Below, in pieces: positions 1,327 to 30,071 of a stretch of 64,000 bases of DNA (position 1 is its first letter; every line of letters starts with the position of its first letter). The stretch is from an uncultured bacterium. GTDB lineage: Bacteria; Zhuqueibacterota; QNDG01; CAYUAG01. The position numbers were made by a program, and so were the translations under genes. The stretch spans positions 3,922 through 67,921 of the forward strand of contig CAYUAG010000004.1 in the NCBI GenBank assembly GCA_964442615.1. The letters run 5' to 3'. A model generated the notes under the pieces. That model had not been told where the DNA came from. It saw only the letters and a list, made by a program, of their open reading frames with translations, and did no database searches.

Positions 1327-2703
1327 CTATTTCACCGATACTCTACTGACAAGATACCGTAATGTTTCATCTTTGTTGGTGTTAGCAAATAGCAGTCCCG
1401 GTTTGTCAGTTTGGGGATCATGCACAGCCAGCTTCACATTATATTCACCTGTGGAAATATTCTCCGGAACAAAAATTGAAACAGTTTCTATCCAGGTGCC
1501 AGGAAGCCATTCCCGAATATCAATTCCTGTTTCCTGTTCTACAACAGTACTTCCCTGCTCATCAACAAAATAAATTACTACCGGCCACTGAAAGTAAAAA
1601 GGAGCTACCCCTTTATTTTCAATCTGAATATCAAACTCAAAATCATCTCCCTGGTTCACATCACCATCATGTTCAAAGCTCTGAATTACAAACCTATATC
1701 CTAGAGTTTTATGCAGTAATTCAAGATTCTCCCTGTGTTCTTCACTCTGGGGTTGAATTGCTCCTCCGGCTGTTCCCATAAAAGACCAGTGAGTCTGCTG
1801 TATAAAACTAAAATTAAGATCAAAACGTTGGGTGGTACCAGCTATGGCACCCTGCTCACTACCGCAAAACTCTCCGGTTATGATTGCTGTTTTCCAGATC
1901 CGGTCATTAAGAGTAGGATCGATTCTATTCAAACTTTCCAGATACCAGTTATTTGATTCAGCAGTACCCAAACAATCATTGCGAATACCGCCACTCAGAT
2001 CAGTAACATATTTAGTGGCAAAATCATCATCAAAGGCAATTACTTTTGGTTTAGTGGGAAAGGCCTGAAAATAATCCTCAAGAATGCTTTGCTTTGTCCC
2101 CTGAGTAGCAGCCAGACTATCATTGAGCCAGACATGCCATTCCCCCCAGAAACCGTAGGATCCAATATCTATCCAGGCTACTCGGGGATCTTGATCATAC
2201 CGACTGCCAAGAGCCATGATAAAATCATGATGGGCAGCAAGAAAGGTTGAATCATCCCAGTCAGGAGCCAGACCCTGATGTCCGTCAATAGAATATGGTC
2301 GCATTGCCACTCCCTGGTCAATCAGCCACTGGGGTGTGTCATCCTGTCCTGATCCAGGTATACAGGCAGCAATACGGAATCCGACTTTTTTTCCGGTCTT
2401 TTGGACATTACCCCAGTTCTGTTCCAGTCTTGCCCAATTATATACATATTGCTGAGGCTGAAGATCTCTCCAGGCAAAGGTAGCATATTGCAGTTTTTCA
2501 TTGAATATGGGATTAGTATCCCCTATCCAGGGAGCAAAACCTTTAAAAGGATTTTCCAGGGGATCATCAATTTCAACCAGTTCTATCTCTGCTAATTCTG
2601 CCGCAGTTGGGTTGTCTTTACAGGAAAAAAATCCTTTTAAAAATATACTAATTAGTAAAATCATAATTATAAAATAAATATTTTTTTTGTAATAAAATTT
2701 CAT
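1327..2703 (-). CDS. Exported lipoprotein, clan GH-A-like TIM-barrel glycosidase candidate with C-terminal beta-sandwich (DUF4874/DUF4832-like; 'GEWH' subfamily)
   Basis: 458-aa ORF. Lipobox ...GFFSC. 'FAWRDLQPQQYVYNW' resembles the W..lEP..G.y.w opening of GH42/GH35-type barrels. Contains the motif WIDIGSYGFWGEWHVW. The C-terminal 'WLPGTW..VSIFVPENISTGEYNVKLAVHDP' looks like an Ig-like domain. Paralogue of 13489-14946. Confidence 0.6.
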   Translation of the reverse strand: MKFYYKKNIYFIIMILLISIFLKGFFSCKDNPTAAELAEIELVEIDDPLENPFKGFAPWIGDTNPIFNEKLQYATFAWRDLQPQQYVYNWARLEQNWGNVQKTGKKVGFRIAACIPGSGQDDTPQWLIDQGVAMRPYSIDGHQGLAPDWDDSTFLAAHHDFIMALGSRYDQDPRVAWIDIGSYGFWGEWHVWLNDSLAATQGTKQSILEDYFQAFPTKPKVIAFDDDFATKYVTDLSGGIRNDCLGTAESNNWYLESLNRIDPTLNDRIWKTAIITGEFCGSEQGAIAGTTQRFDLNFSFIQQTHWSFMGTAGGAIQPQSEEHRENLELLHKTLGYRFVIQSFEHDGDVNQGDDFEFDIQIENKGVAPFYFQWPVVIYFVDEQGSTVVEQETGIDIREWLPGTWIETVSIFVPENISTGEYNVKLAVHDPQTDKPGLLFANTNKDETLRYLVSRVSVK

Positions 2704-2720
2704 GACACTACTTTCTTTTT

Positions 2721-4889
2721 TTATTTTAATGAAATGAGAGCTAATCCATAAATACTTTTCAAATCAAGAGAAAATGAAATCAGAGTTTTTCCATTCAGTT
2801 TGATTTTTTTAAAAGGAATTGATTCCATCTGGAAAAGAGAACCACTGAAGCGAACAGTAGTAATCTCTTTATTTTCAGGAATAAGAATCTGAAGATTCAA
2901 TTCCCCTGGCGGTGTAATAGTACCATCTACAGTTACATTATAATTAACCAGATGAACCAATAGCAGATTTTGAGCCTCATTATTCATTACAGTCATTTCA
3001 ACAAAGGGTGAGCCCTTTATTTGTGAATATCTTCTTTTCAGCACTGACACGACTCTATTGGTGGTTAAATCCAATATATTCCGTAATGCTGGATGAATGT
3101 TACCACGAGTATAGGCCTCAGGAATGTCCGGAAACACATCAAACATAGCAGGACCAAAGGTTGTTACTTTTCCCTTTTTATTTGCTCTGGTTAAAAAACC
3201 TGATTCAGGAATGGTAAGAGGAATATAATGGATAAATCCCTTTCCCCAGGATTTATGTACAGATGATTCTGGATAGGTCTCAGTTTCCAAAAGTGCAAGT
3301 AAAGGAACTTTGTCATACGGTACATTATACTGATTCTTGACTCCTGAAGATCCAAGTATCAATAATTCACCGCCTGATTTGACATATGAAATTAGAGTAT
3401 TCTGTAATTCCCTGCTGAGAAGCGGCAGATAGGGAAGGATAATCATATCCATTTTCTGCAGCTTCTTAGATTGAAAAAGATCACTCTCAACCAGCATTAT
3501 ATGCCCGATTCCCCGGTCAGCAAATATCCTGGAAAGACTGAAGGAAAAGCTAAGTTCATCAGCCAGATACTGGTTCAAGGAAGCTAAAATTCCAATATTA
3601 CTCTCTAAATGAGCACCGCTCAAATAAATTTCATTTTCAGCTAAAAACCGATGAATTTGAGTGGCACCTTTCGGGGTTTGCCGTTTTTCCCGGAATACAC
3701 AATGATTTGCTGCCGCCTCAGCTATATTGATTTGGGCCATTGCACTGAGAGCTTTTTCTGTGGGTTCGGGAAATATTGGTGGTGTAATTTCTATGGCATA
3801 TTCTATAACTGGCTTACTGTTGCAGGCTGCAGCTAAAAATTTCAGGGCAGGACTATTGGTAATTTTTACTCCTCTTATATCTTTTCTGGGAGCTGAATCT
3901 AAATATTCCTGTATTTCTGAGTAGATAAAATCATCAACTTTGCCTAACATTTCCATATTACCGGCTGCATCATAGGCAATAGGACCATATCCGAATCCAC
4001 CAAATACATTACCTGAGATCATAAATTGGGGATTAACTTCCCTGGCAGCTGTACGCAATTTTTGATGAAATTGAGCTACTGAATTACTCCTGAACTGCCG
4101 GAATTCCATCCAGAAGTTATCTCCTTTTTCTTGCGGTAGTTCCACAGCACTGTAATCAGATGAGGCATATTTTTTTTCAGCCATTTTCTTTGGTAAGTGT
4201 TTTTGTAAATAATCCCTGAATGCCTGAACACAGTATTTACAGTAACAGGTACTGCCTGCAATATGTGTCCAGTCAACATAGGATCCGTCTATACCGGTCT
4301 CAGCCTGCGCTCTGATCCGTCCTTCCATCATCCGTACATAATAGGGATTATTGGGACACCCCCAGGTTTCGAATCCCTGGTCTGTTTCCCGACCATAGGG
4401 GGCGTAACGATAATAGGGAAAGCTACTATCCGCATGAATAGTAATCCAGGTACTAGGATCCTCTGGGGGTTTGGGGCCGATATAATCTTCAAAATCATTC
4501 CAGCGGTTATGATAAAAATCTAGCAGGTGGATCTGATCCTTTTGCGGTTCCGAGGTTCGGGTCTCACTCTCACCGTTAAGAGAGGTGGAAAGATACCGCA
4601 GTACAATATACCCGCTGTCGTGATAAGTTTTATTGAAATCCTTAGCCTTTTCCATCTCCAGTTCAAATTCTTTTCTATCCACGTATTCAAAATTCGGCGC
4701 TCCGCTTCCAAAGGTGACGGTAAATCCGTTTTTCTCCAGAAACTGAAAATCAGACCGATGACCCAGCCTCCAGTGACCCCAATCAGTATTGGGTTCCCAG
4801 GAGGTATCAGATAATTTCCCGCATGAAAGTATTAAAATTAATATGCCTGCAGCACACAAAGAAAATGTCGAGCTTATGATACCTTTCAT
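2721..4889 (-). CDS. Exported lipoprotein with GH42-like architecture: TIM barrel with Cys cluster plus GATase1-like middle domain plus beta-sandwich
   Basis: 722-aa ORF. GGGAGG SD upstream; lipobox LILSCG. Cys178 (WGCPNN) plus C215-x-C217-x-x-C220 (STCYCKYCVQAFRDYL) resemble the GH42 zinc site. 'MIILPYLPLLSRELQNTLISYVKSGGELLILG' resembles the GH42 trimerisation/GATase1-like domain. Paralogue of 14985-17183. Confidence 0.55.
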   Translation of the reverse strand: MKGIISSTFSLCAAGILILILSCGKLSDTSWEPNTDWGHWRLGHRSDFQFLEKNGFTVTFGSGAPNFEYVDRKEFELEMEKAKDFNKTYHDSGYIVLRYLSTSLNGESETRTSEPQKDQIHLLDFYHNRWNDFEDYIGPKPPEDPSTWITIHADSSFPYYRYAPYGRETDQGFETWGCPNNPYYVRMMEGRIRAQAETGIDGSYVDWTHIAGSTCYCKYCVQAFRDYLQKHLPKKMAEKKYASSDYSAVELPQEKGDNFWMEFRQFRSNSVAQFHQKLRTAAREVNPQFMISGNVFGGFGYGPIAYDAAGNMEMLGKVDDFIYSEIQEYLDSAPRKDIRGVKITNSPALKFLAAACNSKPVIEYAIEITPPIFPEPTEKALSAMAQINIAEAAANHCVFREKRQTPKGATQIHRFLAENEIYLSGAHLESNIGILASLNQYLADELSFSFSLSRIFADRGIGHIMLVESDLFQSKKLQKMDMIILPYLPLLSRELQNTLISYVKSGGELLILGSSGVKNQYNVPYDKVPLLALLETETYPESSVHKSWGKGFIHYIPLTIPESGFLTRANKKGKVTTFGPAMFDVFPDIPEAYTRGNIHPALRNILDLTTNRVVSVLKRRYSQIKGSPFVEMTVMNNEAQNLLLVHLVNYNVTVDGTITPPGELNLQILIPENKEITTVRFSGSLFQMESIPFKKIKLNGKTLISFSLDLKSIYGLALISLK

Positions 4890-4951
4890 AAAAACCTCCC
4901 TTCTAAAGCTTTAAAAATTATATTAAAGAATGAATATCTTTACTAAACATG

Positions 4952-6247
4952 CTATTTTACTCCCATTTCCGGCAGCACATCCAACGCCTTTTGGGCTAAT
5001 TCCTTGGCTTTGACAGCGGCTGTGGCTACAAAAATTTTGCGGGAGGAATGAGGCATGAATCCTCGACCGTCGCTGTTCTCTGACAGCATTAATTGATGTC
5101 GGGCTTCCTCTAAAATTATCCGTGATTTGGACACATTAACTCCCATCTTTTCTGCAAAATCAACCAGGTGGGTTGCCATGGCAATCTCATCATTGGCCTG
5201 TTCCATAAGAATATTGAGTCGTTCCCGCCCTTCTCCCCGGAGCCAGGTATCAAAATCGGCATGTCCTGAAATATTTTCAGCATAAATCATCTTTTGGGGA
5301 GGATGTGTCTCAATATATTCCCCCATGGTCATAAATTTGGCATAGGGAAGACTCTCCAGCATGGTCAGTTTCTCATCCATCCACTGGATTGCCGGGAGAC
5401 TGGGAAGAGAATCTCCCCAGGAATAGGCGATATCCTCAGGAAGATGTTCACCCCAGGTGAGTTTGGATCCCGCACGTTCATTCAGAACATCAAAGGAGTG
5501 CAGGTAGATGACCTCAGCATCATCCTTAAAGGCCACCAAAAATTCATCAATGTTTTCCTGTTTCAACTTCTGGTACAAAGCGTCCAGACGCTCTTTTAAT
5601 TCTTCCACACTTCCCTGATCCAGAGAATTGGTACAGAGCACAACCTTAGCCTTGGTATTATTTATTCCCTCAATATAAGCAGTAGGAGGATATAAAAGTT
5701 TATCTTGGTATTCAGGAACAATTTCTTTATAAATTGAGACCCATTCTATACCTACTTCTTTCATGATCTGGGGTAAGCATACATCCCAGGATACCTCAGG
5801 TAGGAACAGACCCTTAGGACGGATGTCCCACACCTTCTGATCGGATTCCAGACCCCTCCGAAGCTGCTGGATAACATTATCATATGGAATCAGGGAAAGC
5901 ACAGGATGGGTATAGGTGTAGGTACCGATGTTATACTTACCCCTTTCATAGGACTTTTTTACCCTCTCTACAAAAGTTGGAAAATGTTCCTGCAGATATT
6001 CACTTGTATATCCGCTGAAGAAAAAATCTGCCTTAACCCGTTTATGTTTATCAAAAATATCAAGAAGCGGAATATGTCCTTGGGTAACCATAATATCGGT
6101 TTTGTCTACCGGAAACTCAGCAAAATTTAAATTGAAATTAAAATTATAGGTAAAATAAATTACCGGCTCACCGCTGTAAACCAGGGAAATACCTCCAGTC
6201 ATAATACATATTAAACCTTTAATAATACTATATTTATACATTTTCAT
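4952..6247 (-). CDS. GH57-like / polysaccharide-deacetylase-fold glycoside hydrolase candidate, secreted
   Basis: 431-aa ORF with AAGGAGA SD. 'GTYTYTHPVLSLIP' and 'PKGLFLPEVSWD' resemble the GH57 conserved regions (H-P-I-L-P-L and the G-x-W-x-x-E nucleophile region). N-terminal hydrophobic signal. Confidence 0.45.
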   Translation of the reverse strand: MKMYKYSIIKGLICIMTGGISLVYSGEPVIYFTYNFNFNLNFAEFPVDKTDIMVTQGHIPLLDIFDKHKRVKADFFFSGYTSEYLQEHFPTFVERVKKSYERGKYNIGTYTYTHPVLSLIPYDNVIQQLRRGLESDQKVWDIRPKGLFLPEVSWDVCLPQIMKEVGIEWVSIYKEIVPEYQDKLLYPPTAYIEGINNTKAKVVLCTNSLDQGSVEELKERLDALYQKLKQENIDEFLVAFKDDAEVIYLHSFDVLNERAGSKLTWGEHLPEDIAYSWGDSLPSLPAIQWMDEKLTMLESLPYAKFMTMGEYIETHPPQKMIYAENISGHADFDTWLRGEGRERLNILMEQANDEIAMATHLVDFAEKMGVNVSKSRIILEEARHQLMLSENSDGRGFMPHSSRKIFVATAAVKAKELAQKALDVLPEMGVK

Positions 6248-6403
6248 AAAATTTCTCCTTGTAATGAATTTATAAATGCCAAAATTTTTAGGTTTATTTT
6301 TATTGACCTTATTTATTATTGATCATTTTCTTGCTTATCTTCATTATTGGAATGAGTATTGTTATCAATATCGGTTTAATCATTAACTAAAGAGTACATG
6401 ATT

Positions 6404-7516
6404 TCAAATTCCAGGTATCCATTTTTCAATATTATATCTGAAAATCTTTGCAACTACATTTTTGTGCAATTTTAGACCTTGAAATTCACCTTCCAGTTCT
6501 GGTGCAGTCATAGTATCTTCAGTAACAAAATATCTCCATGCCGCCACCCATCTTTCATGCATGTGTTCCATTAACACATCAATATCACTGACTCCGCTGA
6601 CACTCAATCCGGAACCAAAATCTGAGCCATATAGAATTCTGTCCTGATATTTAATGATAAAATCCCGTACTCTGTCCCTATCCTGCTGACTTTGTACTTG
6701 CAGATGACAAATTCGTTCAGCAAGATCAACCGCCAGATTAGGAAATGCATCAAATCTTTCAGCCAACTCATCCACACTCCATTCCAGACTGGCAAGATGA
6801 CAGCCAATGAATTTTAAATCCGGATTTTTACGCAGCATTGCATCTCTGGCATCAATTATTTCCTGATAGGAAGAATATTCCGGATGTTTGTACATATGAT
6901 ATTCAGGATGCATTTTAAAATAAGCCTGATCGCTCTTAACAGTCATCTGTTCAATCGGGAGCCAGCAGTTTTTAGGCTCTCCGATATGCCCGAATAAAGG
7001 TATGTTGTGTTCTGCAAGATAGGAGAATATGGGATTAAATTTCGGATCATCTAGCATCACAAAATTACCTTCTTCATCCTTTGCAGTCATGCCGATATTC
7101 TTCCAGACTTTAACTGCAAGCGCACCTTTTTCAAATGAATCCTTTAAATAATCCAAAGTCTTCTCCTGCCAACGAGGATCATTAAATCCCTTCATACTGA
7201 ATGATGTCGCATAGTTTATTCTGTCTTTATATTTCTTCTTTAATTTGAGTACAATTTCCTGTTGTTCCGGAAGACTTACAAAATTTGGTACATCCGTATT
7301 AAGTGAAAATAGCCGGAAATTATCCTGCTTGGCTTGTTCCAGCCAGGCCGGATCATCTGTTCTCAAATGCATATGCGCATCAATTTTTTCAAATATTTTG
7401 AAATCTTCCATAGTAAAGGTATTATTCGAATCCCTACAATAAGAAAAAAACCCTAACAAAATAGCCATGCTGCTTATCAAAAAAAGTTTTCTAAAATTAT
7501 CTTTGCTCCATTTCAT
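6404..7516 (-). CDS. Exported Amidohydrolase_2-type metal-dependent hydrolase (TIM barrel), lipoprotein
   Basis: 370-aa ORF with AAGGAAG SD. Lipobox-like LGFFSYC. 'KIDAHMHL' H-x-H metal motif near the N-terminus and later 'ILYGSDFG' Asp motif. Paralogue of 7576-8643 and 28974-30071. Confidence 0.7.
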   Translation of the reverse strand: MKWSKDNFRKLFLISSMAILLGFFSYCRDSNNTFTMEDFKIFEKIDAHMHLRTDDPAWLEQAKQDNFRLFSLNTDVPNFVSLPEQQEIVLKLKKKYKDRINYATSFSMKGFNDPRWQEKTLDYLKDSFEKGALAVKVWKNIGMTAKDEEGNFVMLDDPKFNPIFSYLAEHNIPLFGHIGEPKNCWLPIEQMTVKSDQAYFKMHPEYHMYKHPEYSSYQEIIDARDAMLRKNPDLKFIGCHLASLEWSVDELAERFDAFPNLAVDLAERICHLQVQSQQDRDRVRDFIIKYQDRILYGSDFGSGLSVSGVSDIDVLMEHMHERWVAAWRYFVTEDTMTAPELEGEFQGLKLHKNVVAKIFRYNIEKWIPGI

Positions 7517-7575
7517 ATATTACTTCCTTTCACATATATTTAAATAACAAATATTGAGAGTAATCATCTCAATAA

Positions 7576-8643
7576 TCACTGTACATCATATCCCAATTCT
7601 AAAAGCTGCTCTTTTACATGAGGATATATTCTTGCAGCATTCTGATAATAAATTTTTTCCAATACATCACGGGGAAGCAAAAGTCCCTGAGTTGGATTCA
7701 TACTAAAAAAACCGCCTTCAACTCTTTCATCGGTTTCCAGTATTTTAAAAGTCCGGATATATTGTTCAGTACGGGATTCTGCTTCTTCAGGATTTTTAAA
7801 AGCACTGATATCTGTCCCGTATAGGATCCTGTCCACCCATTCAATCATAAATGCCCGGAGATTCTCACGATCCAGTAAATAATAATACTGAAAGGTAGCA
7901 GCGAGATCAACATTGAAATTGGGAAATGTTGCAAGCATGTTACGTAAATAATCAAGCTGTGCATCCTGACACACCAGCCAGTCACCATGTGCAGCAACTG
8001 CAATTAAATCAGGATGCCTTTCTAATACATGCCTCCAGGCAGTAATTTCTCTCCAGTATTCTATAGGATCTGAAAGCCATTTTGTACGGTTACCATATGG
8101 TCCATTGGGATCTGCAATATGTATCGATGCTGCAACCATGCCGATTCTTTCCATTTCTGCAAATGTAGGTTCATGCACCAAATTGTCTATGTACCGGAAT
8201 CCCTCCTCTCCTTCTTCAAGTTTCCGAAAATATGGACCTGCCCAAATCTTATATCCGATATAGCCCTTTTCAAGCCAGGTATGCAAATCTTTAGGCGGAT
8301 TATCAAGACCATCATGTGCAGAAAAATCTGATATACAGGGGAGCACCCGGCCTTTACTGACCTGCCGGGATTTATGTAAATCTGGAATCTGATTTTCACT
8401 TGTTCCAAGATCAATCCACATAGCAAGATCTGTATCATACGTATCCTGTAATATCTCTCGCATTTTTAAGAAATTCACCATACCGACACTATCACCACCG
8501 ATATGAGTGTGGACATCAATTCTGGGTATTTCCGGATATTTAGAATATTTCTGTGCATATATATTTGTAGATTTAATTGCTATCATAGATAATAAATAGA
8601 TAGCAATAATCAGTATGATGATAAAATTTTTCTTCTTTCGCAT
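7576..8643 (-). CDS. Exported Amidohydrolase_2-type metal-dependent hydrolase
   Basis: 355-aa ORF with AAGGAG SD. Sec-type signal (MRKKKNFIIILIIAIYLLSMIAIKSTNIYAQ). 'RIDVHTHIGGD' H-x-H motif and 'ILYGTDIS' motif. Confidence 0.7.
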   Translation of the reverse strand: MRKKKNFIIILIIAIYLLSMIAIKSTNIYAQKYSKYPEIPRIDVHTHIGGDSVGMVNFLKMREILQDTYDTDLAMWIDLGTSENQIPDLHKSRQVSKGRVLPCISDFSAHDGLDNPPKDLHTWLEKGYIGYKIWAGPYFRKLEEGEEGFRYIDNLVHEPTFAEMERIGMVAASIHIADPNGPYGNRTKWLSDPIEYWREITAWRHVLERHPDLIAVAAHGDWLVCQDAQLDYLRNMLATFPNFNVDLAATFQYYYLLDRENLRAFMIEWVDRILYGTDISAFKNPEEAESRTEQYIRTFKILETDERVEGGFFSMNPTQGLLLPRDVLEKIYYQNAARIYPHVKEQLLELGYDVQ

Positions 8644-8703: not shown

Positions 8704-9447
8704 TTATTTACCAAATTTCAATAACCCAAATTTTCTAGGGACATGAAAATTGGATACAGTAGGAGACCAAGCATACCAGCTGGATTGATCATTCCGGTCT
8801 CTGTTTATGCGGTAATAATTGATTTTCCATTGAGTCTCTTCAAAGTTCAACTTTTCTGAATTACCCATTAGTTCTCTAAAAGGCACAGCAATCTCAACTG
8901 TCCATTTTTTATCTATATCGGCTTTATTGTTAAGCGTCCCCTCAATCTGTACAGCAGTCTGAATACCTGAGAGATTAAATTCTGCTGTCTGTGCTATATC
9001 AATATTTGCAGGCTTTTCAATATAGCTGTCAAACAGTACATTATAAGGGGAAACTTCGATTTCAATATATGTATCAGGATTATTATCTGTGTCAATGAAA
9101 ACCTCCACCACCTCCTGCTTCCAGAGACTTTCATCCCGTTCTGTGTAGTTGCTCCATATATCAGGATCATTACATTCGAACGCGATGTACAGATTTTGCC
9201 CGTCATGGCACGATTTGGTCCATGTTTTTATCGCTTCATCTTCAACTGACTTACCCGTTTTATTAGTTTTAAGCGTTAACGTTTCTGCGCGTTCCCAGAC
9301 AGATTCGTCCAGCACGCCATCGATGATAATGCTTTTATCGCATCGAGTTGCGATATACGTATAGTCTAAGTGAGTGTCCTTCCGCACACACTCAACAAAG
9401 AGAAGGCTAAGTAAAAAACAAATAACTACGATACAATTTATCCGCAT
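8704..9447 (-). CDS. Secreted CBM9-like carbohydrate-binding protein
   Basis: 247-aa ORF with GAAGGAG SD and a signal peptide. 'IIIDGVLDESVWERAE' is the typical CBM9/DOMON-like opening motif. No catalytic domain is apparent. Confidence 0.5.
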   Translation of the reverse strand: MRINCIVVICFLLSLLFVECVRKDTHLDYTYIATRCDKSIIIDGVLDESVWERAETLTLKTNKTGKSVEDEAIKTWTKSCHDGQNLYIAFECNDPDIWSNYTERDESLWKQEVVEVFIDTDNNPDTYIEIEVSPYNVLFDSYIEKPANIDIAQTAEFNLSGIQTAVQIEGTLNNKADIDKKWTVEIAVPFRELMGNSEKLNFEETQWKINYYRINRDRNDQSSWYAWSPTVSNFHVPRKFGLLKFGK

Positions 9448-9492
9448 AGTGGTACTCCTTCATACACCCTTTAAAAAGAGAATAAGCACTAA

Positions 9493-10776: not shown

Positions 10777-10802
10777 TGTAACAATCCTTTGAAATAATCT
10801 GC

Positions 10803-11120
10803 TTAGGGCTTAGTTTCTTTGAATTCCATAACATTCGACGCCTCTTGACTGCTCACTACCTCAAAAACTCGTAGAAAAATATTCGTCCCTGTCTTCTCCT
10901 CCCACATATCCTTGTTTGCAAAGCGTATCGAATAACGTGTATCATCATGGAGAGTCGGTTCCGGGTCTGGCATACGAATTCCAAGCGAGTATGTACCTGC
11001 CAGAATCTGCGCAGGAACACTCAGCGCCGTTTTCACCGTTATCTGTTCACCGGCGCCCCAAAAACGCGGCTCTTCTGCAAGTACGGCAACGTGCTCCTCG
11101 GTAGGTTCCACTTCGCACAA
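10803..11120 (-). pseudogene. Remnant of the C-terminal beta-sandwich of a DUF4832-like paralogue (catalytic barrel missing)
   Basis: The ORF-track start is TTG (rc of caa at 11118-11120). There is no in-frame ATG before codon 50 and no SD. An in-frame stop lies two codons upstream, and only 58 nt separate it from the preceding gene. 'WGAGEQITVKTALSVPAQILAGTYSLGIRMPDPEP...IRFANKD' aligns by eye with 'WLPGTWIETVSIFVPENISTGEYNVKLAVHDPQTDKPGLLFANTNKD' of 1327-2703. Confidence 0.55.
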
Positions 11121-11178
11121 ACTTGTTTAGAAATTAATTTAACAACTTCTTTTCACTCAATATTGTCACACATTCAAT

Positions 11179-13386: not shown

Positions 13387-13488
13387 TTTATTTTCCTCGA
13401 AGTAACTACTATTAGTTATAGATAGTGTTTTTTTATTATTAAGCTGCAATATGCCAAAAAAATCTTTAGGCATCGAATTTCAGAATTA

Positions 13489-14946: not shown

Positions 14947-14984
14947 CTTTATCCTCATTATTTCATAGTTCATAGCTAACCACG

Positions 14985-23181: not shown

Positions 23182-23197
23182 ATTTGACTCCAATACT

Positions 23198-25216
23198 TTA
23201 TTCAATCCAGATAACTGCACCTTTACCAATAGCAGGAAGCGTACAGGTAAGCTTTCCTTCTTTGAAATAAGCATCAATTTCTCGAGGCTCTTCCAGATAC
23301 GGCAGCATATAAACATTCTTCTCTATATCAGTTTCAAAAGATACTTCCACACCTATTTCGGATAATTGCACTGCATTTTTTCTTCCTTGCAAACCTTTGA
23401 AATTTACTATAAAAATATGCGGTTTGTCATTTACTTGGGTAATCTGGGTTGAAATAAAAGGGGAAGCAGCAACAGCTATGGGCGTTCTGTAATCTAATTC
23501 TGACATAATCTCATGAACCAGAGACTGACGATATTCATTGAAATGGTCTTCCCTGCAGATACCTTTTCGGGCTGACTTATTAAATTCATTATTAAGTAGT
23601 TCATTATATTTTTTGCCTGGACACTGAGGATAGAATAGTGCGGATGCTTTTTCAGTCTGTACTGTCTGTTTCACAGCATTATTAATACCGATTATTTCCC
23701 AGAGGGGATTATTCTTACGTTTCTGGCGTGAATAATCATATACTCCTGTCTCTTCACTGATGATCAGTGACATACCGGAATCCACAAAATGACGCAACTG
23801 AGCTGCCTCATCCTTAGAGATGCATTTTACATCTGGTAGAATCAGTATTTCTCCCTGAAAATCATTCAGGGTACGGGGAGTGAGTATCTGAAATTCCAGA
23901 TGAGACTGCAGTAATATATACATCCAGCCTTTATACGATTCCATAAATTCATCCACAAAATAGTTGCGCGTCTTTGGGGAAAAATAAATACCTATAGGGT
24001 GTAGTGGTTTACGAGGATGATAAAATTTCTTCTCATGTTCAGCTATCCAGGCATACACTTCTTTTCTGGTGGGATAATCATTCGATCCTGACATCACATG
24101 TCCCCGGGCATCCCAGCAATTAGTGCCTGCCATCAGCTGCGATACAAATAAATTTTTCATGGCATCTTCTGGATCCACCTCTTTTTCCTTATCCCAGGAG
24201 TAGCTCAACATCCAGGAAGCTTTGTCTTGAGCAAAGGCACGGAAAGTGTACATACCAGTCATATAAGAAAACCAATCCAGGGGATCTTTACGGGCCGCAT
24301 TACCCCCGCCACCGCTGTATTCATGAGCAATAACATCAACCACCGGATACATATCATACACATCCGCACCAACCCGTACTGCAGGCTCCTCTATACCCGG
24401 ATATATCTCCGGGATAGTCATGCAGTCCGGATTAACAGACTTCACATTTTCATCAACTTCTTTCATAAAATCGGTCAGGGTTGTAATTCTAAAATCCACC
24501 CATTTAATAAAATTGGGATCATTGAAATTACCCAGTTCCATGTCCTCTTGGGGATTGATCCCGGTCTCTTCTCGAAAGGTTTCAACTGTATACTTGTCAA
24601 AACTTGCCCAGGTATCACCCCATCCTCTGAAATGGGTCATCCAGTAAGGAATATCAATGTAAACACCGTCTATACCAGTAGCTGCAATCTGTTGGATACG
24701 TTTCATATAGATATCACGCCATTCCTGAGCATAAGGTGTGATCCAGACATCCTCATCACCTTCAGATATCCAGAAAGCAGCATCATGGCCGAATACGGCC
24801 GGATTTCCATCTATGTCTCTCTGCACCCAATCCGGATGATCCTTGAAAAAGGTATGCTCCTTCTGATCAGCCTGGGTGGTTATGGTTTCCAGACCCTCTG
24901 TATAAACATAAATTTTGTTTCCCATTTCATGAGCCCGATCAACATAGGCTTTGATGGTTTTTAATTTTTCCTCCGGTTGTAGAAAGCTCTCATAATAACC
25001 AGTAAGACTGTTATCTATCTCAATACCAAAAACATGAGTTTCTTTTACCTGTTCAAACACCTCATCAATATGATCCATACTGGCACCATGACCGGCAGTT
25101 CGTATAAAATGGGCCCAATTTTGCTGCCCATCTTTTTTGGAGTTTACAGTGCATCCAAAAATCAAACATAAAAACAAGCATACTGTAATTATCTGAAAAA
25201 ATTTAAATTTATGCAT
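23198..25216 (-). CDS. Exported lipoprotein, GHL/GH114-like TIM barrel plus GATase1-like domain
   Basis: The ORF track gives 23198-25237. ATG at 25216 (MHKFKFFQIITVCLFLCLIFGC, lipobox) follows AAGGAGA. 'GIDGVYIDIPYWMTHF' resembles the D-G-x-x-x-D barrel motif of GH114/PelA-like hydrolases. 'GEILILPDVKCISKDEAAQLRHFVDSGMSLII' is the middle-domain signature. Confidence 0.4.
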   Translation of the reverse strand: MHKFKFFQIITVCLFLCLIFGCTVNSKKDGQQNWAHFIRTAGHGASMDHIDEVFEQVKETHVFGIEIDNSLTGYYESFLQPEEKLKTIKAYVDRAHEMGNKIYVYTEGLETITTQADQKEHTFFKDHPDWVQRDIDGNPAVFGHDAAFWISEGDEDVWITPYAQEWRDIYMKRIQQIAATGIDGVYIDIPYWMTHFRGWGDTWASFDKYTVETFREETGINPQEDMELGNFNDPNFIKWVDFRITTLTDFMKEVDENVKSVNPDCMTIPEIYPGIEEPAVRVGADVYDMYPVVDVIAHEYSGGGGNAARKDPLDWFSYMTGMYTFRAFAQDKASWMLSYSWDKEKEVDPEDAMKNLFVSQLMAGTNCWDARGHVMSGSNDYPTRKEVYAWIAEHEKKFYHPRKPLHPIGIYFSPKTRNYFVDEFMESYKGWMYILLQSHLEFQILTPRTLNDFQGEILILPDVKCISKDEAAQLRHFVDSGMSLIISEETGVYDYSRQKRKNNPLWEIIGINNAVKQTVQTEKASALFYPQCPGKKYNELLNNEFNKSARKGICREDHFNEYRQSLVHEIMSELDYRTPIAVAASPFISTQITQVNDKPHIFIVNFKGLQGRKNAVQLSEIGVEVSFETDIEKNVYMLPYLEEPREIDAYFKEGKLTCTLPAIGKGAVIWIE

Positions 25217-25307
25217 ACTATTCTCCTTTAATAACATTTTAATGGTAAAAGTAATTTTTTATCTGGAAAGATTGATCTGCAGTGATTGTTCCAACTGCAC
25301 TATCACA

Positions 25308-26849
25308 CTAAATTATTGGAGATAATGTAAGAGAACCGTTTTCATTAACCTTTTCCCGACAGGCCCATTCTACCGGATACAGTTTATGCTTGACTTCAAT
25401 CTCAGCTTTAACTTTCAATCCTTTCCAGTCAACTCCTTTAGGTAAAATCAGCTGAGCCTGACGCACACCCCGGGGCTTTGGGTATCCCGGATCAAGACAC
25501 CCACTTACCTGAACACTTCTGTCATCATTATACACAGTAAGACAAAGCACTCCCGGTACTGGTGCGATTCCATCATTTACCATTCCCAATACCAAACCCT
25601 GATGTCCTGCTTTATCGAACTTCCATATCCAGGATGGGCGAACCCGGTACCCGATCTTTCTGGCTAAAAGATCAATCATATCAGGATACTGTTTGTAGTA
25701 ATTGAGGATGCGATCAGCTCTGATTCTATGCCAATTCCATAAGGAATAATAATTGGCTCCCAGATCCATAACATGGGAAATAATCCGGTCAATACCTGGA
25801 ACACCTTCCATCAGATCAAGACTTTCCTTGCTTCCATCTGACATTCCTTTTTCAATAACTGCTGCTGCCCAGAGAGGACGATTACTCAACGCCTCGATTT
25901 GTCTGTTTTCAATATAAATGGTATCGGTACGGATCCAGTTATTGCTCCGAATAGTTCTGTCCAAAATCTCGGAGTTACCTACTCTGCTGTAGTCAGGCTG
26001 AGTATTGGTAACCAGGGGCGTTTTTGTCCAATTTTGTACCTGTTGCTGAAACATAGTGATAAACGTTTTTTCAGCAGTAACATAATCAGGAAAAGGATTA
26101 CCCTGAAAGGGCCAGGTATGGCCTTCTCCCCAGAATCCATACATACAGGTGTCAACATATTCAACCAGAGAATGACCGTTATATAAATCAGCCAGCATGG
26201 TATCCAGATCTCTGAATGCATCCATAAAATATGGATCATCATAACGGGGAACATAATGGACTTTATTGGGATATCCTATTCTCCTGGTTTTCCCTAATTT
26301 AACGAAATCCACCTTTTCAGCTACAAAATCAGGAACTGCATGTCCGGGGATTACCGGATTCATCAGCTGAATTCGAAATCCCACCCGCTTATTATATCTT
26401 TCAGCTGCCTTAAATGCAGCCTTCCAATGAGGACAGAAAGCTAAGTCTCCAGGTTTGGATTGAATATCTTTCCAGTCCAGTCGGACATAAAGCTTTTGGG
26501 TCAAATCAAGGGCGGCCAGTTCCTCGATAAGTTGTTCTACTGCTATTCCTTCTTTTTGGGGAGGCCCAGCTTCATCACAAACATAGGTAACCAGTCCCAT
26601 ACCGAAATTATTCAAGACTTTTTGGGAAGATGTGGTTGCCATAACCACATGACTTCCGGGAACTACTTCTTCCGGAGGATACATAGGAAAAGGTCCCTGA
26701 TTTAACCTGTCTTTAACTACCGGACCTTTTCCAAAATTATATCCTTCCCAGTTATGTGCAGGTACGAATCCATATATTGTTTTACCGGCAAATCCGGCTG
26801 CTGTCAAACCTGCAGTAAGATTAAGAAAATCTCTTCTGTTTAAATGCAT
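25308..26849 (-). CDS. Tat-exported DUF4832-like TIM-barrel glycosidase candidate ('GEGHT' subfamily)
   Basis: The ORF track gives 25308-26858 with a GTG start inside the SD. ATG at 26849 (MHLNRRDFLNLTAGLTAAGFAG) follows AGGTGGA. 'RLDWKDIQSKPGDLAFCPHW', 'TCMYGFWGEGHTW' and 'GYRVRPSWIW' support the call. Confidence 0.55.
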   Translation of the reverse strand: MHLNRRDFLNLTAGLTAAGFAGKTIYGFVPAHNWEGYNFGKGPVVKDRLNQGPFPMYPPEEVVPGSHVVMATTSSQKVLNNFGMGLVTYVCDEAGPPQKEGIAVEQLIEELAALDLTQKLYVRLDWKDIQSKPGDLAFCPHWKAAFKAAERYNKRVGFRIQLMNPVIPGHAVPDFVAEKVDFVKLGKTRRIGYPNKVHYVPRYDDPYFMDAFRDLDTMLADLYNGHSLVEYVDTCMYGFWGEGHTWPFQGNPFPDYVTAEKTFITMFQQQVQNWTKTPLVTNTQPDYSRVGNSEILDRTIRSNNWIRTDTIYIENRQIEALSNRPLWAAAVIEKGMSDGSKESLDLMEGVPGIDRIISHVMDLGANYYSLWNWHRIRADRILNYYKQYPDMIDLLARKIGYRVRPSWIWKFDKAGHQGLVLGMVNDGIAPVPGVLCLTVYNDDRSVQVSGCLDPGYPKPRGVRQAQLILPKGVDWKGLKVKAEIEVKHKLYPVEWACREKVNENGSLTLSPII

Positions 26850-26881
26850 AAAGTCCACCTATTCAATAATTATTAACTAAT

Positions 26882-28948
26882 TTATTGAGGTATTGCTTCC
26901 AGGAGCAGATACTGTTTAAAAGAGACCTCAATATAGGGAGAACTACTTTCTACTATTCCATAGTTTTTCTGGTTCACATAATCATTGACTGTATAAACCA
27001 TTCCTGGGGTAAGTCCCCGGAGCTCAATTTCCCCGTTAAAAGCTTTGGCATAAAATGCATAAAACATTTTTTTATCTTTTTTAATGGCATGTGTTTCTGG
27101 TTTGTCAAATCCAATATCATAAAGATGACCGAGATAATTACCTTTTGGTAACATTTTATCCTCATATATTCTCAGCCACTTCCGCCACTTTTCTTCTCTT
27201 TCTACAGTAAGATCAATCTTGGAATCCTTTTCAGATCCAACCGGCCAGGTAAATTTAGTACCTATAACTCCACCCACTCCCACGGTGGAAGCAAAATCAT
27301 CTCCCCCGTCACTGAGTTCAACATGATCTCCATAGTAGGCTGTCCTTGGTCCCATTAATGCTTTAAACGTTTTTCCCTTCAGCCGAATCTGCCAGGAACT
27401 GGTGGGATCGGAAGCAACCGGCTGATTCATAAAGGGCATAGTATGAAAATTATAAGCAGTACCGCAGGGACAAATCTCTACGACTGCATCAGAATTGAGG
27501 GATAGAGCTGTTTCGTAAATCATTTTGAAAAAATCAGGAGTAGCTTCTACTGATTCTTCGGCTCGACTATGATGATGTTTGGGATTATAACACCTGGGAG
27601 CCAGATTCAGGTGCTGTCCGTCAATTTTCAAACCATCAAAATCCCACTCTCCCATTATTTTTTCTACCAGTTTTTTAGTATATTGTTGAACCTCAGGATA
27701 TTGGGGACACAGATAATAGGCATTCCACCAACTGATTTTCCGTTTTGAACCATCTTCATTGAGAAGCAAATAATCAGGATGATTTTTTATCAGGTCAGTT
27801 CCAGGATCAACCGCCAGAGGAGCCCACCACAATTTTGCTTTCAATCCATATGAATGGATTTTGTCAACCAAAGCTTTCATGTCAGCATCACCCCGAGGAA
27901 ATTTATCTTTCACTAGATACCAGTCTCCCTCAGCAGTTTGCCACCCATCATCCAGTACAGCCCATTTATATCCCATGTCAGCCACTTTGGGAAGGGCGTT
28001 GTATATCTGCTCAATGGTGAAATTCCGTCTAAATCCCCAGGCACACCAGATAGGCTCATACGCAGTCTCAGAGGGTTGGGGAAAGCTAATACCATTTTTT
28101 CCCATAAAGCGACGGTACTCGGTCAGAGTATTGAAATAATCCCCTGTATGTAAAAGAACAAATGTCTTCAAGGTGTTTAAGCTCATTCCAGGTGATAAGG
28201 TTTCATCAACTTTAAAAGTTACAGCTACCTGTGCTTGATTTTTATGAGGCATAGTAACTGGAAGAGAAACTAATTTAGGTTCTGTTTCCATATGGCCAAT
28301 CCCAAGGCCAATATCCTTTGTCCATACATCACTGACTGGTGTTCCTCCACCATAGTCAGTCGCATTCATACCCAAATAATTCTCTTGTTTAAATCCCTTT
28401 TTAAGTGGTAAAATCCAATCCGGGCGTGACTCATAGGATCCACTCTGATAAGACCAGAATATAGGTTCATCATTATCCTTTTTCTCAGATCGGATCATAT
28501 AATTGTTGTTTGTCCAGGAATCTATTTGTAGATCCTGATTCCACATATTACTGTATCGTACCTGAAATAATGCCATAAAGGGAAAATCATCATAAAGAGT
28601 AATTAAAACTTCTTTTTTTAAATGTGAATTAGTACCTACAATTATATGTCTGCTTCCCTTTCCTATAGCATCAGTGAAAGATTCTACTTTATGATCAATA
28701 AAAATAAAATTCTGTACTTTTTTCCCCTTAACCGTAATTGTTTCTGAAACAGTAAAATCACCAAGTTCAACAGTTTGATCTCCTGTTGTTACTATTCTGC
28801 TGAATAAATTATTATCGAAATCAATCTGTATCCCTTTATGTTGTACCTGCAGGACAATTTTATTTTTCTTTGTACAGTTAGTGAATAAGAAAACAATACC
28901 GATAACTACTATGACAACTATTGATTTTATAATTCTTGAATAAATCAT
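26882..28948 (-). CDS. Clan GH-D (GH36-like) alpha-galactosidase candidate, secreted/anchored
   Basis: 688-aa ORF with AGGAGG SD and an N-terminal hydrophobic anchor. 'YKWAVLDDGWQTAEGDW', 'GLKAKLWWAP' and 'DFDGLKIDGQH' match the DDGW and K-x-D catalytic-region motifs of GH27/GH36. Confidence 0.6.
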   Translation of the reverse strand: MIYSRIIKSIVVIVVIGIVFLFTNCTKKNKIVLQVQHKGIQIDFDNNLFSRIVTTGDQTVELGDFTVSETITVKGKKVQNFIFIDHKVESFTDAIGKGSRHIIVGTNSHLKKEVLITLYDDFPFMALFQVRYSNMWNQDLQIDSWTNNNYMIRSEKKDNDEPIFWSYQSGSYESRPDWILPLKKGFKQENYLGMNATDYGGGTPVSDVWTKDIGLGIGHMETEPKLVSLPVTMPHKNQAQVAVTFKVDETLSPGMSLNTLKTFVLLHTGDYFNTLTEYRRFMGKNGISFPQPSETAYEPIWCAWGFRRNFTIEQIYNALPKVADMGYKWAVLDDGWQTAEGDWYLVKDKFPRGDADMKALVDKIHSYGLKAKLWWAPLAVDPGTDLIKNHPDYLLLNEDGSKRKISWWNAYYLCPQYPEVQQYTKKLVEKIMGEWDFDGLKIDGQHLNLAPRCYNPKHHHSRAEESVEATPDFFKMIYETALSLNSDAVVEICPCGTAYNFHTMPFMNQPVASDPTSSWQIRLKGKTFKALMGPRTAYYGDHVELSDGGDDFASTVGVGGVIGTKFTWPVGSEKDSKIDLTVEREEKWRKWLRIYEDKMLPKGNYLGHLYDIGFDKPETHAIKKDKKMFYAFYAKAFNGEIELRGLTPGMVYTVNDYVNQKNYGIVESSSPYIEVSFKQYLLLEAIPQ

Positions 28949-28973
28949 ATATTCCTCCTTTTGTCAATAAATT

Positions 28974-30071
28974 TTACTTTATTAATATTCCAAGAGCATT
29001 AGTACGATAGACTTTTTTCAGAATATTTTTTGAAAGACCAAAACCATTAAGAGCCCAATGATAGCCGAACTGATCTGTTTCATAGAAATGTTCATCTTCA
29101 GTTTCAAGAATATGAAAAGTAATTCTGTACATATCCAGATCAAAACCCATATCAGTACCGTACAATAACCGATCCTGATATTTTTTATAAAAAGAACGTG
29201 TAAACCTGGGAATTGGAGCTGTCTCCGCATATCTGGCAGATATATCTGCATAGAGATTAGGATATTTATCCAGTAATTCCCCTAACTTGGACAGATTGTA
29301 GGAACAGTTTGCAAAATGACAAGCAATAAAAGTTGTACGAGGATGTCGCTTAACTGCATTTTCCAGAATATCAATCATTCCAGCGTGTCTTACAATATCG
29401 GGTTGATTATCCAATCGCCATTCATAGGCATTCATAAGACCATCATTAGTCTCATCCATAGGTTCATACATCCACCTTGGATCTGCAACATGAATACTGA
29501 TGGGAAGATGTAAATCTGCACACTTTTCAAGCAATGTATTCATACGTGGATCATTAAGATGCATACCCTGGGCTTTGGTTTTACAATAAAATAAACCTTT
29601 CCCTTTATCACCTAGTTCACCCACACCTTTCGCACCTCTTTTAACACATCGTTCAAGTTCAGCAACTGCTGCCGGTCCGAAATCTGACTTATCATATCCT
29701 GAATAATCAAATCCGCACCATAGTTCAAATCGATCCGGATACCTGGCATACATGGTATAAATCGAATCAAATTTAGCACCAACAGCCATGGTAAGTATTA
29801 TTGTCTTTTCAATATTGGCAGCATCCATATTTTTCACCCATTGATCAATTTGGTCCGGTCCCTGAGCATAGGGGTGGGAATGCATGTCAATAATCGGAAA
29901 ACTGGCCTTCATAATCTCTGTTCGTGGGATTTTATATAGTGACTGGGGATGATAATCTTTTAATAACAGCCTTTCAGGTCTGCTTGCCTTTTCTTTATCA
30001 GAACACTGTATAGAAAAGAAAAATACACTTACAATTATCCCAAATAACCAACCTCGATTAAAAAAATTCAT
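28974..30071 (-). CDS. Exported Amidohydrolase_2-type metal-dependent hydrolase, lipoprotein
   Basis: 365-aa ORF with an SD. Lipobox-like FFFSIQC. 'IIDMHSHPY' H-x-H motif, 'ISIHVADP' and 'LLYGTDMG'. Third paralogue of this family in the window. Confidence 0.7.
   Translation of the reverse strand: MNFFNRGWLFGIIVSVFFFSIQCSDKEKASRPERLLLKDYHPQSLYKIPRTEIMKASFPIIDMHSHPYAQGPDQIDQWVKNMDAANIEKTIILTMAVGAKFDSIYTMYARYPDRFELWCGFDYSGYDKSDFGPAAVAELERCVKRGAKGVGELGDKGKGLFYCKTKAQGMHLNDPRMNTLLEKCADLHLPISIHVADPRWMYEPMDETNDGLMNAYEWRLDNQPDIVRHAGMIDILENAVKRHPRTTFIACHFANCSYNLSKLGELLDKYPNLYADISARYAETAPIPRFTRSFYKKYQDRLLYGTDMGFDLDMYRITFHILETEDEHFYETDQFGYHWALNGFGLSKNILKKVYRTNALGILIK

Follow-up and report, generated by a model that had tools for sequence, protein, structure and literature searches.

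What does a bacterium do with 17 adjacent genes for exported proteins, most of which escape family assignment? This question is raised by an island at positions 1327–30071 of the window, the 64,000-nucleotide stretch of contig CAYUAG010000004.1 from an uncultured Zhuqueibacterota bacterium that was analysed as a whole. In a preliminary description, the island was said to contain no transporter, no regulator and no SusC/SusD pair, which is literally true within its borders but does not hold as a property of the locus, since the boundary had been set at 30071. As judged from gene order, the functional unit is a single-strand block of approximately 1327–49764 (~48 kb, 30 genes, g01–g30; Table 1), and the island is its enzyme half. 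We read this unit as a hexosamine-polysaccharide utilisation locus whose substrate, at our best guess, is an α-linked galactosamine/N-acetylgalactosamine (GalN/GalNAc) polymer of the Pel or galactosaminogalactan type, and we give this assignment, which is read from sequence, about an even chance of being correct. Pel is partly deacetylated α-1,4-GalNAc.

The unit was extended to 49764 because the upstream gene order recurs in metagenome contigs and because the surface-protein cassette that ends at g18 directly precedes the same enzymes elsewhere. In two related loci from other contigs (L066 and L067; L numbers denote such loci throughout), the order g30-g29-g28-g27-g26-g25-g24-g23-g22-g21-g20-(g19)-g18-first enzymes is kept, and L076 keeps the g30-to-g23 order at 34–66% identity over a stretch that was examined up to g23. 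For individual genes, collinearity was found in L066, L067 and L076 (g30, with the rest of the unit), in L066, L067, L071 and L076 (g26), in the same four loci and L068 (g25), and in L063, L064 and L066–L075 (g22); g20 and g21 are also collinear in related loci, and relatives of g18 (50–73% identity) occupy the same position in L063–L067, L070 and L072. A metagenome scan with g23 as the query gave 11 loci, across which its relatives are 64–88% identical (74% in KSB1). The g23 gene always stands directly after the receptor gene, and the g24–g23 adjacency is retained in 8 metagenome loci. The cassette precedes the enzymes, at 47–74% identity, in a Marinimicrobia-like contig (g22 to g18 confirmed), a KSB1 metagenome-assembled genome (g23 to g18) and a 6.3-Mb genome (g21, g20 and g18), and in these three it is directly followed by relatives of g06, g14, g12, g13, g02, g01, g09, g17 and g15. 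Within the island, the order from g16 down to g02 is kept in close relatives. The claim that organising genes are lacking is thus contradicted by the DeoR regulator, catabolic genes, EamA permease, TonB-dependent receptor and cassette linked to type IX secretion (T9SS), all of which lie directly upstream on the same strand and are collinear in other genomes; the apparent lack of a transporter and a regulator results from where the coordinates were set. Of the organising genes, SusD alone is genuinely missing, with no Pfam match among the 28 largest open reading frames (ORFs) scanned in 1327–62001 (ORFs of 120–150 aa and up), and the receptor g24 is a poor SusC/RagA match (58 bits on TIGR04056, with a cut-off of 368). 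By these homologies, the locus is conserved in several poorly studied bacterial phyla.

The enzyme half is compact. All ORFs of at least 150 aa in 1327–30071 are on the minus strand, as had been described, bar one spurious plus-strand ORF within g14, and the coding share is 95%. The previous count of 18 intact genes is reduced to 17 (g01–g17) plus one remnant, the C-terminal 105 codons of a DUF4832 gene. The reported spacing of 10–60 nt applies to most junctions (11 of the 16 measure 11–70 nt), but others include 108, 156, 229 and 402 nt. Export signals were assigned with a heuristic script that looks for lipoboxes, twin-arginine motifs and hydrophobic segments at the N-terminus, and not with SignalP. 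In agreement with the preliminary description, each of the 17 products has a twin-arginine motif or an N-terminal segment that is hydrophobic; canonical lipoboxes are present in at least six, and motifs for twin-arginine translocation (Tat) in g07, g11 and g15. The same script detected export-type N-termini in none of the four cytoplasmic enzymes encoded upstream (45611–49764). The resemblance to a polysaccharide utilisation locus (PUL) noted earlier is therefore supported by 17 exported enzymes that are co-localised with a DeoR regulator on one strand and are collinear with it elsewhere.

The strongest functional clue is provided by the neighbours of g11 relatives in other bacteria. Among 52 loci of at least 9 kb, each with a g11 relative, an Amidohydro_2 relative is present in 24 (g04, g05 and g17 pooled), a DUF4832 hydrolase in 14 and a g28, g29 or g30 relative in 11. 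In Acidobacteriota (Bryobacterales and Terriglobia), a compact operon encodes a DUF4832 hydrolase, a SIS protein, a PfkB kinase, an Amidohydro_2 protein and a g11-like protein (for example, L047, 4991–11560). Relatives of g09 (34–39% identity) and g28 (41–47%) are found in these operons, and their SIS genes best match the AgaS family (258–275 bits). DeoR, g16-like GH36 and EamA relatives are located nearby (L022, L025, L028), DeoR relatives adjoin g11-family genes, and in L025 a g26 relative (58%) adjoins g17-like and g16-like genes. The modules are flanked by M19 dipeptidase and CN-hydrolase genes. In L047, the opposite strand (12789–16115) encodes a 1108-aa fusion of GH18, a CE4 deacetylase and a chitin-synthase-like GT2, with the M19 dipeptidase gene between it and the module. 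The g11 relative of Paenibacillus sp. HB172176 (L059, 9956–11419) has no Tat signal or signal peptide, which indicates that the family includes cytoplasmic members; it has GNAT and NagB-type deaminase genes on one side and a GFO/IDH/MocA oxidoreductase gene on the other. Three types of hexosamine-6-phosphate deaminase are thus encoded beside the same family-less barrel in three phyla, and we regard this neighbourhood pattern as the strongest clue that the locus would act on hexosamines. A minimal module of five or six genes, which corresponds to g04–g07 and the DUF4832 remnant of the window, was found in the cultured flavobacterium Pareuzebyella sediminis (VTZS01000008.1; L061, 7735–15371) in the order Amidohydro_2, g07-like, CBM9, Amidohydro_2, DUF4874/DUF4832, with no adjacent SusC/SusD; another Bacteroidota-like genome has a similar module.

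The assignment to galactosamine draws on g16 and on the catabolic genes. Residues 43–686 of g16 align to residues 13–651 of 8x1b with an E-value of 2.8e-81 (8e-18 for the next GH36 structure), and the homology is full-length, across the N, GH36 and C domains of the FpGalNase subfamily. The residues listed or mutated in the structural paper on FpGalNase are D346/D347, K461, D463, C513 and D532 (PMC11762096). The active-site motifs are present in g16 (LDDGW at 332, K441-I-D443, CPCGT at 493 and DPTS at 514), including the equivalents of D463, C513 and D532, which matter by mutagenesis in FpGalNase; an equivalent of Y464 is not evident in g16. Based on this homology, g16 is a candidate for terminal α-GalN hydrolysis. 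The GatZ/KbaZ protein g27 implies a galacto-configured pathway; it scores 567.7 bits on TIGR02810 (agaZ_gatZ), which has a cut-off of 568.8. The kinase g28 has no specific NCBIfam equivalog. The NCBIfam matches of g29 are all below cut-off: GlmD is the best (174 bits), and the others are the C-terminal part of GlmS and the AgaS family (96.8 bits, cut-off 529). A fructosamine (FrlB/FrlD) reading of the SIS–PfkB pair was rejected, with 37 bits for g29 on FrlB vs 174 on GlmD.

Cleavage of the polymer would be the task of the DUF4832-type barrels. All four barrels with the motif YGxWGE(W/G)H that had been recognised from the letters were recovered (g01, g09, g11 and g15 carry YG[FH]WGE[WG]H). Both g01 and g09 exceed the Pfam DUF4832 cut-off of 29.2 bits and have the layout of a TIM barrel and a DUF4832 β-sandwich. 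The only Pfam match of g11 and g15 is to the Tat-signal model PF10518, yet their family is homologous to the DUF4832 family by hhalign (98.6%, E 1.3e-15, 387 columns covering both domains). The more than 3261 homologues of g11 (54–92% identity) likewise have no family beyond PF10518; they are found in Calditrichota, Acidobacteriota, Gemmatimonadota, Glassbacteria and Paenibacillus, and the nearest are labelled Calditrichia, Calditrichota or Caldithrix, by which the host would be Calditrichota-like. The AlphaFold2 (AF2) model of g11 (pLDDT 84.9) is a (β/α)8 barrel with a C-terminal β-sandwich, and its fold matches in the PDB are remote only (β-amylase and GH35, TM 0.3–0.4). Glutamates that follow predicted strands 4 and 7 are invariant in the g11/g15 family (E247 and E339 in g11). 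From the model, these residues would form the catalytic pair. We regard g11 as a candidate for a retaining glycosidase whose family has yet to be described. In Gram-positive bacteria, DUF4832 genes accompany pel loci as accessory genes (PMC7112168). One DUF4832 protein, SIR_1591 of Streptococcus intermedius (468 aa, barrel and DUF4832 layout), is as effective as PelA in dissolving Pel-dependent aggregates (PMC12345266). It is like g01 and g09 in size and in two-domain layout, a likeness taken from the published description, and the resemblance to β-amylase and GH35 that was reported for SIR_1591 (PMC12345266) is also seen in the g11 model. By analogy, g01 and g09 may cut Pel or another GalN polymer.

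For deacetylation, the candidates are g07 and g03. The g07 family (617 homologues, none with a Pfam family) has invariant residues D54, D55 and H155-x3-H159. The best matches of its AF2 model (pLDDT 79.5) are weak (4dwe, 8ccy and 2cc0; E 2e-4 to 8e-4, TM 0.26–0.33), and they are a Bacteroides putative polysaccharide deacetylase, the N-deacetylase domain of NDST1 and a CE4 esterase. The g07–g06 pair is conserved in L004, L041, L048 and L061. In g03, Polysacc_deac_1 is above its cut-off (26.7 bits against 23.1), but GH57 scores higher, and there are weak PDB matches to both kinds. The three Amidohydrolase_2 proteins of the preliminary description are g04, g05 and g17; all retain an N-terminal HxH motif, and in both Pareuzebyella (L061) and L062 a g04 relative (44%) is the immediate neighbour of the g07-like gene. 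The GGT-family protein g12 belongs to its family but lies below the equivalog cut-off of TIGR00066 (258.7 bits vs 357.85). In its GGTT motif, T373 is a plausible Thr nucleophile by comparison with E. coli GGT. Relatives of g12 adjoin those of g11 in L004, L013, L014, L063 and L065.

The remaining enzymes are the least well classified. Five proteins had been credited with a GH42-type middle domain. Of these, g02 and g10 (35% identical to each other) exceed the Pfam thresholds of PF02449 and PF08532 by a few bits only; the other three, g08, g13 and g14, fall below the GH42-related thresholds and are weakly related to g02 and g10. Even the best PDB match to GH42, from the search with g10, is weak (E 4e-4 over only ~60 residues). 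Relatives of g02 (55–62%) are present in L004, L063, L064 and L065, and those of g13 (59–63%) come after g14 in L063 and L064. More than 4205 homologues of g14 were found, all unnamed. A role of g14 as a GH114 endo-galactosaminidase was considered and rejected (E 0.0088, 15.7 bits against a cut-off of 27, no PDB match, homologues of GHL10/GHL6 type only). PDB sequence searches gave no usable match for g01, g07, g11, g13, g14 and g17, and overall these searches were empty or marginal except for GH36. NCBIfam was uninformative for 14 of the 17 proteins, which bears out the earlier view of the island as a set of poorly classified families; the familiar names in that description (GH36-like g16, GGT g12, CBM9 g06 and GH57-like g03) were confirmed by Pfam. 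These family calls rest on Pfam, NCBIfam and PDB sequence searches, and some of the proteins may have a recent CAZy assignment.

At the cell surface, g22 is a member of the T9SS PorV/PorQ family (195.8 bits on NF033709, cut-off 90), and the C-terminal ~100 aa of g23 resemble PorZ/PorU in weak NCBIfam matches. The LamG protein g20 is, from its domains, a candidate surface glycan binder. The 1191-aa g19 is optional in the cassette: it is present in L063, L064, L066 and L072 (Marinimicrobia-like, KSB1 and others) and absent from L065 and L067.

From the gene content, export signals, homologies, collinearity and cross-phylum linkage described above, we propose a model in which the substrate, each activity and the order of the steps are inferred. 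A partly N-acetylated hexosamine polysaccharide would be captured, imported and degraded by one collinear locus. The polymer would first be bound at the surface by the T9SS cargo g20 together with g23 and g21, with their display aided by the locus-specific PorV-like g22. The lipoproteins g01 and g09 would then cut it, as SIR_1591 acts on Pel aggregates, and the fragments would enter through the TonB-dependent receptor g24. In the periplasm, the fragments would be deacetylated by g07 and g03, possibly with the help of the three Amidohydro_2 proteins and the GGT-family amidase, and trimmed by g16, the Tat-exported g11 and g15, and the GH42/GHL-like g02, g10, g14, g08 and g13. Free amino sugar would cross the inner membrane via the EamA permease g26, be phosphorylated by g28, be deaminated and isomerised to a ketose-6-phosphate by g29, and enter glycolysis through the tagatose branch (g27). 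The DeoR/AgaR-like repressor g30 would control the whole locus.

Several observations weigh against an α-linked galactosamine polymer as the substrate. The link between DUF4832 and Pel is a single aggregate-dispersal assay of SIR_1591, a distant relative, and FpGalNase acts on a blood-group glycan and not on a polymer. The endo-α-1,4-galactosaminidase families GH114, GH135, GH166 and GH191 were undetected in the window, which also lacks an AgaA/NagA-type deacetylase and any obvious hexosamine kinase. A Pfam scan of its ORFs found no GatY/KbaY class II aldolase, which is present in the related island L004. The fold matches of g07 and g11 are weak (TM 0.26–0.40). Barrels of the 4/7 type and GH42/GlmA-like enzymes usually act on β-linked sugars, the best match of g29 is the glucosamine enzyme GlmD and not AgaS, albeit far below cut-off in all cases, and GH18 genes occur within the related islands L004 and L065.

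The last of these points are also those expected if, with the same locus architecture, the substrate were instead a β-linked glucosamine polymer, i.e. chitosan or partly deacetylated chitin from fungal or arthropod necromass, processed along a Thermococcus-like route from deacetylase to GlmA to GlmD. For such a substrate also speak g10, which weakly matches an exo-β-D-glucosaminidase model, g02, which is above the GLMA_2nd and GH42M thresholds, and the pairing of the Paenibacillus g11 relative with a NagB-type deaminase. However, the Pfam ORF scan of the window found no GH18, GH19, GH20, GH46 or GH75 gene, GatZ/KbaZ points to tagatose and hence to the galacto configuration, g16 belongs to the α-galactosaminidase subfamily of GH36, the SIS genes of the Acidobacteriota operons best match AgaS, and the sole tested DUF4832 relative acts on Pel. 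We consider a glucosamine polymer rather unlikely.

The C–N hydrolases of the locus raise the question of whether the amino sugars bear further groups. The GGT-family protein, the three Amidohydro_2 proteins and the M19 and CN-hydrolase genes beside the Acidobacteriota modules have no role in plain degradation of Pel, which is a further point against that substrate. They would be explained by a glycoconjugate whose amino sugars carry amino-acid, peptide or γ-glutamyl groups (a glycopeptide, an amino-acid-amidated or N-acylated polysaccharide, or a poly-γ-glutamate-linked glycan) that are stripped before the glycosidases act. A GGT-family gene adjoins g11 relatives in Calditrichota-like, Bryobacterales, Marinimicrobia-like and other contigs, besides the three exported Amidohydro_2 genes here there are further ones in related loci, and g12, with its plausible Thr nucleophile and a score below the GGT equivalog cut-off, may differ in specificity. 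However, peptidases and peptide transporters are missing from the locus, the polymer cannot be specified, and the amidohydrolases may be plain N-deacetylases or lactonases. For the peptide-bearing polymer suggested in the preliminary description, the GGT-family gene is the sole basis. The odds seem to us to be clearly against such a conjugate, which would in any case be compatible with, and not exclusive of, utilisation of a hexosamine polymer. That the genes serve no nutrient acquisition, whether as a chance run of unrelated exported hydrolases or as a set of tools with which the cell remodels or disperses an exopolysaccharide of its own, is very improbable. In its favour, loci for exopolysaccharide synthesis are known to include DUF4832 and PelA-type hydrolases as accessory genes, the presence of g08 and the DUF4832 remnant shows a changing gene content, and GC content at third codon positions (GC3) ranges between 0.27 and 0.47 within the island. 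Against it, the Pfam ORF scan found no glycosyltransferase, polymerase or export gene in the window, the enzymes are collinear with the TonB-dependent receptor, permease, kinase, deaminase and DeoR genes in several phyla, and subsets recur in Bacteroidota, Acidobacteriota and Firmicutes. An amino-sugar substrate, which the preliminary description had suggested from the enzyme mix, remains the best reading in view of the FpGalNase-like GH36, the deacetylase-like proteins and the linkage to hexosamine-6-phosphate deaminases in three phyla.

The coordinates of all genes of the unit are collected in Table 1. In the ORF list, 20833–23316 and 23198–25237 overlap by 119 nt; this is an ORF-caller artefact, since homologues of g13 start at the internal MKKI..., which gives 23181 as the true start. 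GC3 is 0.42–0.47 in g03 and g07–g10 (4952–6247 and 9493–17183), 0.22–0.31 in the cassette and catabolic genes, and 0.16–0.26 in the housekeeping genes for EF-G and lipoyl synthase (53734–59649). This contrast is consistent with horizontal transfer of those enzyme genes that are conserved best (60–80% identity across phyla). The segment 10803–13386, with g08 (weakly similar to g02 and g10) and the DUF4832 remnant, is present only in this window, and L007 and L048 (~90% identity) run straight from g09 to g07; this comparison suggests that the segment was inserted recently and that one of its genes then decayed. Positions 1–1326, located 3′ of g01, the last enzyme gene, and extending to the window edge, contain no ORF of more than 134 codons and have a GC content of ~0.34. 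At the other end, a gene for an MFS transporter (50181–51650) lies on the same strand 416 nt upstream of g30 and is possibly part of the unit. The neighbouring gene (51924–52934), which encodes a signal-bearing protein without a family, is on the plus strand, as is just one other gene in the window. Scans for promoters and terminators in 1–40000 gave counts that did not differ from those in shuffled sequence and are uninformative on operon structure, and tRNA and Rfam searches of the window gave no matches.

Table 1. Genes and gene remnant of the locus, in window coordinates
Gene	Coordinates	Strand	Feature	Basis
g01	1327–2703	−	DUF4832-type glycoside hydrolase lipoprotein (YGFWGEWH)	Pfam DUF4832, 85 bits
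g02	2721–4889	−	GH42-like, barrel + GH42M/GLMA_2nd	Pfam matches just above threshold
g03	4952–6247	−	GH57/CE4/GH38N-superfamily (β/α)7 protein	Pfam GH57, 56 bits
g04	6404–7516	−	Exported Amidohydro_2	Pfam, 50.8 bits
g05	7576–8643	−	Exported Amidohydro_2	Pfam, 37.5 bits; HTH motif at 45–47
g06	8704–9447	−	CBM9-like protein	Pfam CBM9_1, 55.6 bits
g07	9493–10776	−	Tat-exported CE4-like (NodB-fold) deacetylase candidate, undescribed family	Motifs and fold matches
remnant	10803–11120	−	C-terminal 105 codons of a fifth DUF4832 gene	Translation; PF16116 on JGI copy L001
g08	11179–13386	−	735-aa lipoprotein, no family, window-specific insertion	No Pfam match above threshold
g09	13489–14973	−	DUF4832-type glycoside hydrolase (YGHWGEWH)	Pfam DUF4832, 54 bits
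g10	14985–17183	−	GH42-like, barrel + GH42M	Pfam GH42M, 32 bits; GH42, 22.6 bits
g11	17413–18996	−	Tat-exported barrel + β-sandwich	YGxWGE motif; AF2 model
g12	19105–20796	−	GGT-family Ntn-hydrolase lipoprotein	Pfam, 305 bits
g13	20833–23181	−	782-aa exported protein, no family	Weak GATase1_like match only
g14	23198–25216	−	Lipoprotein, GHL10/GHL6-type barrel + GH42M-like domain	Sub-threshold Pfam matches
g15	25308–26858	−	Tat-exported YGFWGEGH barrel, g11 paralogue	44% identical to g11
g16	26882–28948	−	GH36, FpGalNase-like exo-α-galactosaminidase candidate	PDB 8x1b/9awt match
g17	28974–30071	−	Exported Amidohydro_2 metal hydrolase	Pfam, 74 bits; HSH motif at 64–66
g18	30091–30711	−	Small lipoprotein, last of cassette, abuts enzymes	Lipobox IFGC
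g19	30725–34300	−	Fused MFS/spermidine-synthase-like/TPR membrane protein	NF037959, 153 bits
g20	34624–35652	−	LamG/concanavalin-like, T9SS C-terminal sorting domain	Pfam Laminin_G_3 + Por_Secre_tail; TIGR04183
g21	35744–36892	−	TIG-domain lipoprotein	Pfam TIG; lipobox FIAC
g22	36962–38008	−	PorV/PorQ-family outer-membrane β-barrel	NF033709
g23	38017–40122	−	701-aa exported protein, no family	No Pfam match
g24	40158–43139	−	TonB-dependent outer-membrane receptor, CarboxypepD_reg + Plug N-terminus	Pfam
g25	43271–44662	−	GWxTD-domain lipoprotein	TIGR04514, 94.8 bits
g26	44697–45590	−	EamA/DMT inner-membrane permease	Pfam EamA
g27	45611–46924	−	GatZ/KbaZ-type tagatose-bisphosphate aldolase subunit	Pfam GatZ_KbaZ-like, 596 bits
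g28	46917–47870	−	PfkB-family sugar or sugar-phosphate kinase	Pfam PfkB, 185 bits
g29	47916–48974	−	SIS-type amino-sugar-6-phosphate deaminase/isomerase	Two SIS domains, Pfam
g30	49000–49764	−	DeoR-family regulator (AgaR-like), first gene of conserved unit	Pfam HTH_DeoR + DeoRC

A literature search covering the locus, the function of DUF4832/DUF4874, Calditrichota loci and the PorV-linked receptor cassette returned only the two Pel papers cited above and a paper on GH191. In this literature, we found no published description of the locus, the cassette or the enzyme families beyond the SIR_1591 assay, and no catabolic locus for galactosamine-rich matrix polymers. A bolder proposal, which we regard as doubtful, is that the locus would be the first system for catabolising cationic galactosamine exopolysaccharides (Pel and fungal galactosaminogalactan), spread among sediment and soil phyla, with at least four undescribed families (g11, g07, g14 and g13) and a new SusD-independent capture apparatus of a TonB-dependent receptor, a dedicated PorV-type barrel and T9SS-displayed binders. 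If our main reading of the locus holds, it would give a testable substrate lead for large families without a function (more than 3,000 members for g11, more than 4,000 for g14 and more than 600 for g07), it would show how glycan uptake is organised without SusD in FCB-group phyla, and it would point to microbes in sediments and soils that turn over galactosamine-rich polymers of biofilms and fungal matrices. There is also an interest in agents against biofilms, for which enzymes able to take Pel-type matrices apart are being sought.

Parts of the proposed pathway have counterparts in described systems. With the Flavonifractor plautii A-antigen pathway (FpGalNAcDeAc and FpGalNase), the locus would share the logic of deacetylation followed by cleavage, and g16 is a full-length homologue that keeps the catalytic Asp pair and Cys; the deacetylase candidates g07 and g03, however, are CE4/NodB-like by their own matches and not by comparison with FpGalNAcDeAc. 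A polymer is a likelier substrate than the blood-group trisaccharide because the host is an environmental bacterium with ~16 other enzymes in the locus. The aga/kba regulon of E. coli and Shewanella also brings together a DeoR-type regulator, a SIS deaminase/isomerase, a PfkB kinase and a GatZ/KbaZ-type protein. In contrast to that regulon, there is no phosphotransferase system, AgaA deacetylase or KbaY/GatY aldolase here, g29 is nearer to GlmD/GlmS than to AgaS, and uptake is proposed to proceed via EamA and the TonB-dependent receptor. The known hydrolases of Pel and galactosaminogalactan (PelA of GH166, Ega3 of GH114, Sph3 of GH135, and GH191), none of which is detectable here, serve biosynthesis or dispersal, whereas g01 and g09 are part of a catabolic locus; GH114, GH135, GH166 and GH191 use an Asp/Glu pair, whereas the candidate residues here are two Glu at strands 4 and 7. 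The chitin/chitosan pathway of Thermococcus (Dac, GlmA and GlmD) is similar in combining a deacetylase, a GH35/GH42-like exo-hexosaminidase and a SIS-type deaminase, but the similarity to GlmA and GlmD is weak and below cut-off, GatZ and GH36 point to galactosamine, and the enzymes are exported here and cytoplasmic there.

The overall architecture is closest to that of the SusC/SusD PULs of Bacteroidota, with which the locus shares the one-strand cluster, TonB-dependent receptor, surface lipoproteins or binders, exported enzymes, regulator and cytoplasmic catabolic genes. It differs in that the adjacent susC-like/susD-like pair of those loci is missing: there is no SusD homologue, the receptor scores far below the SusC/RagA model, and it is followed by the 701-aa protein, the PorV-family barrel, the TIG lipoprotein and the T9SS-sorted LamG protein. 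The regulator is of the DeoR type instead of HTCS, ECF or SusR, and the hosts belong to Calditrichota, Marinimicrobia and KSB1. In summary, we see here a utilisation locus of FCB-group phyla that does without SusD, is built largely from uncharacterised enzyme families and has a plausible substrate.

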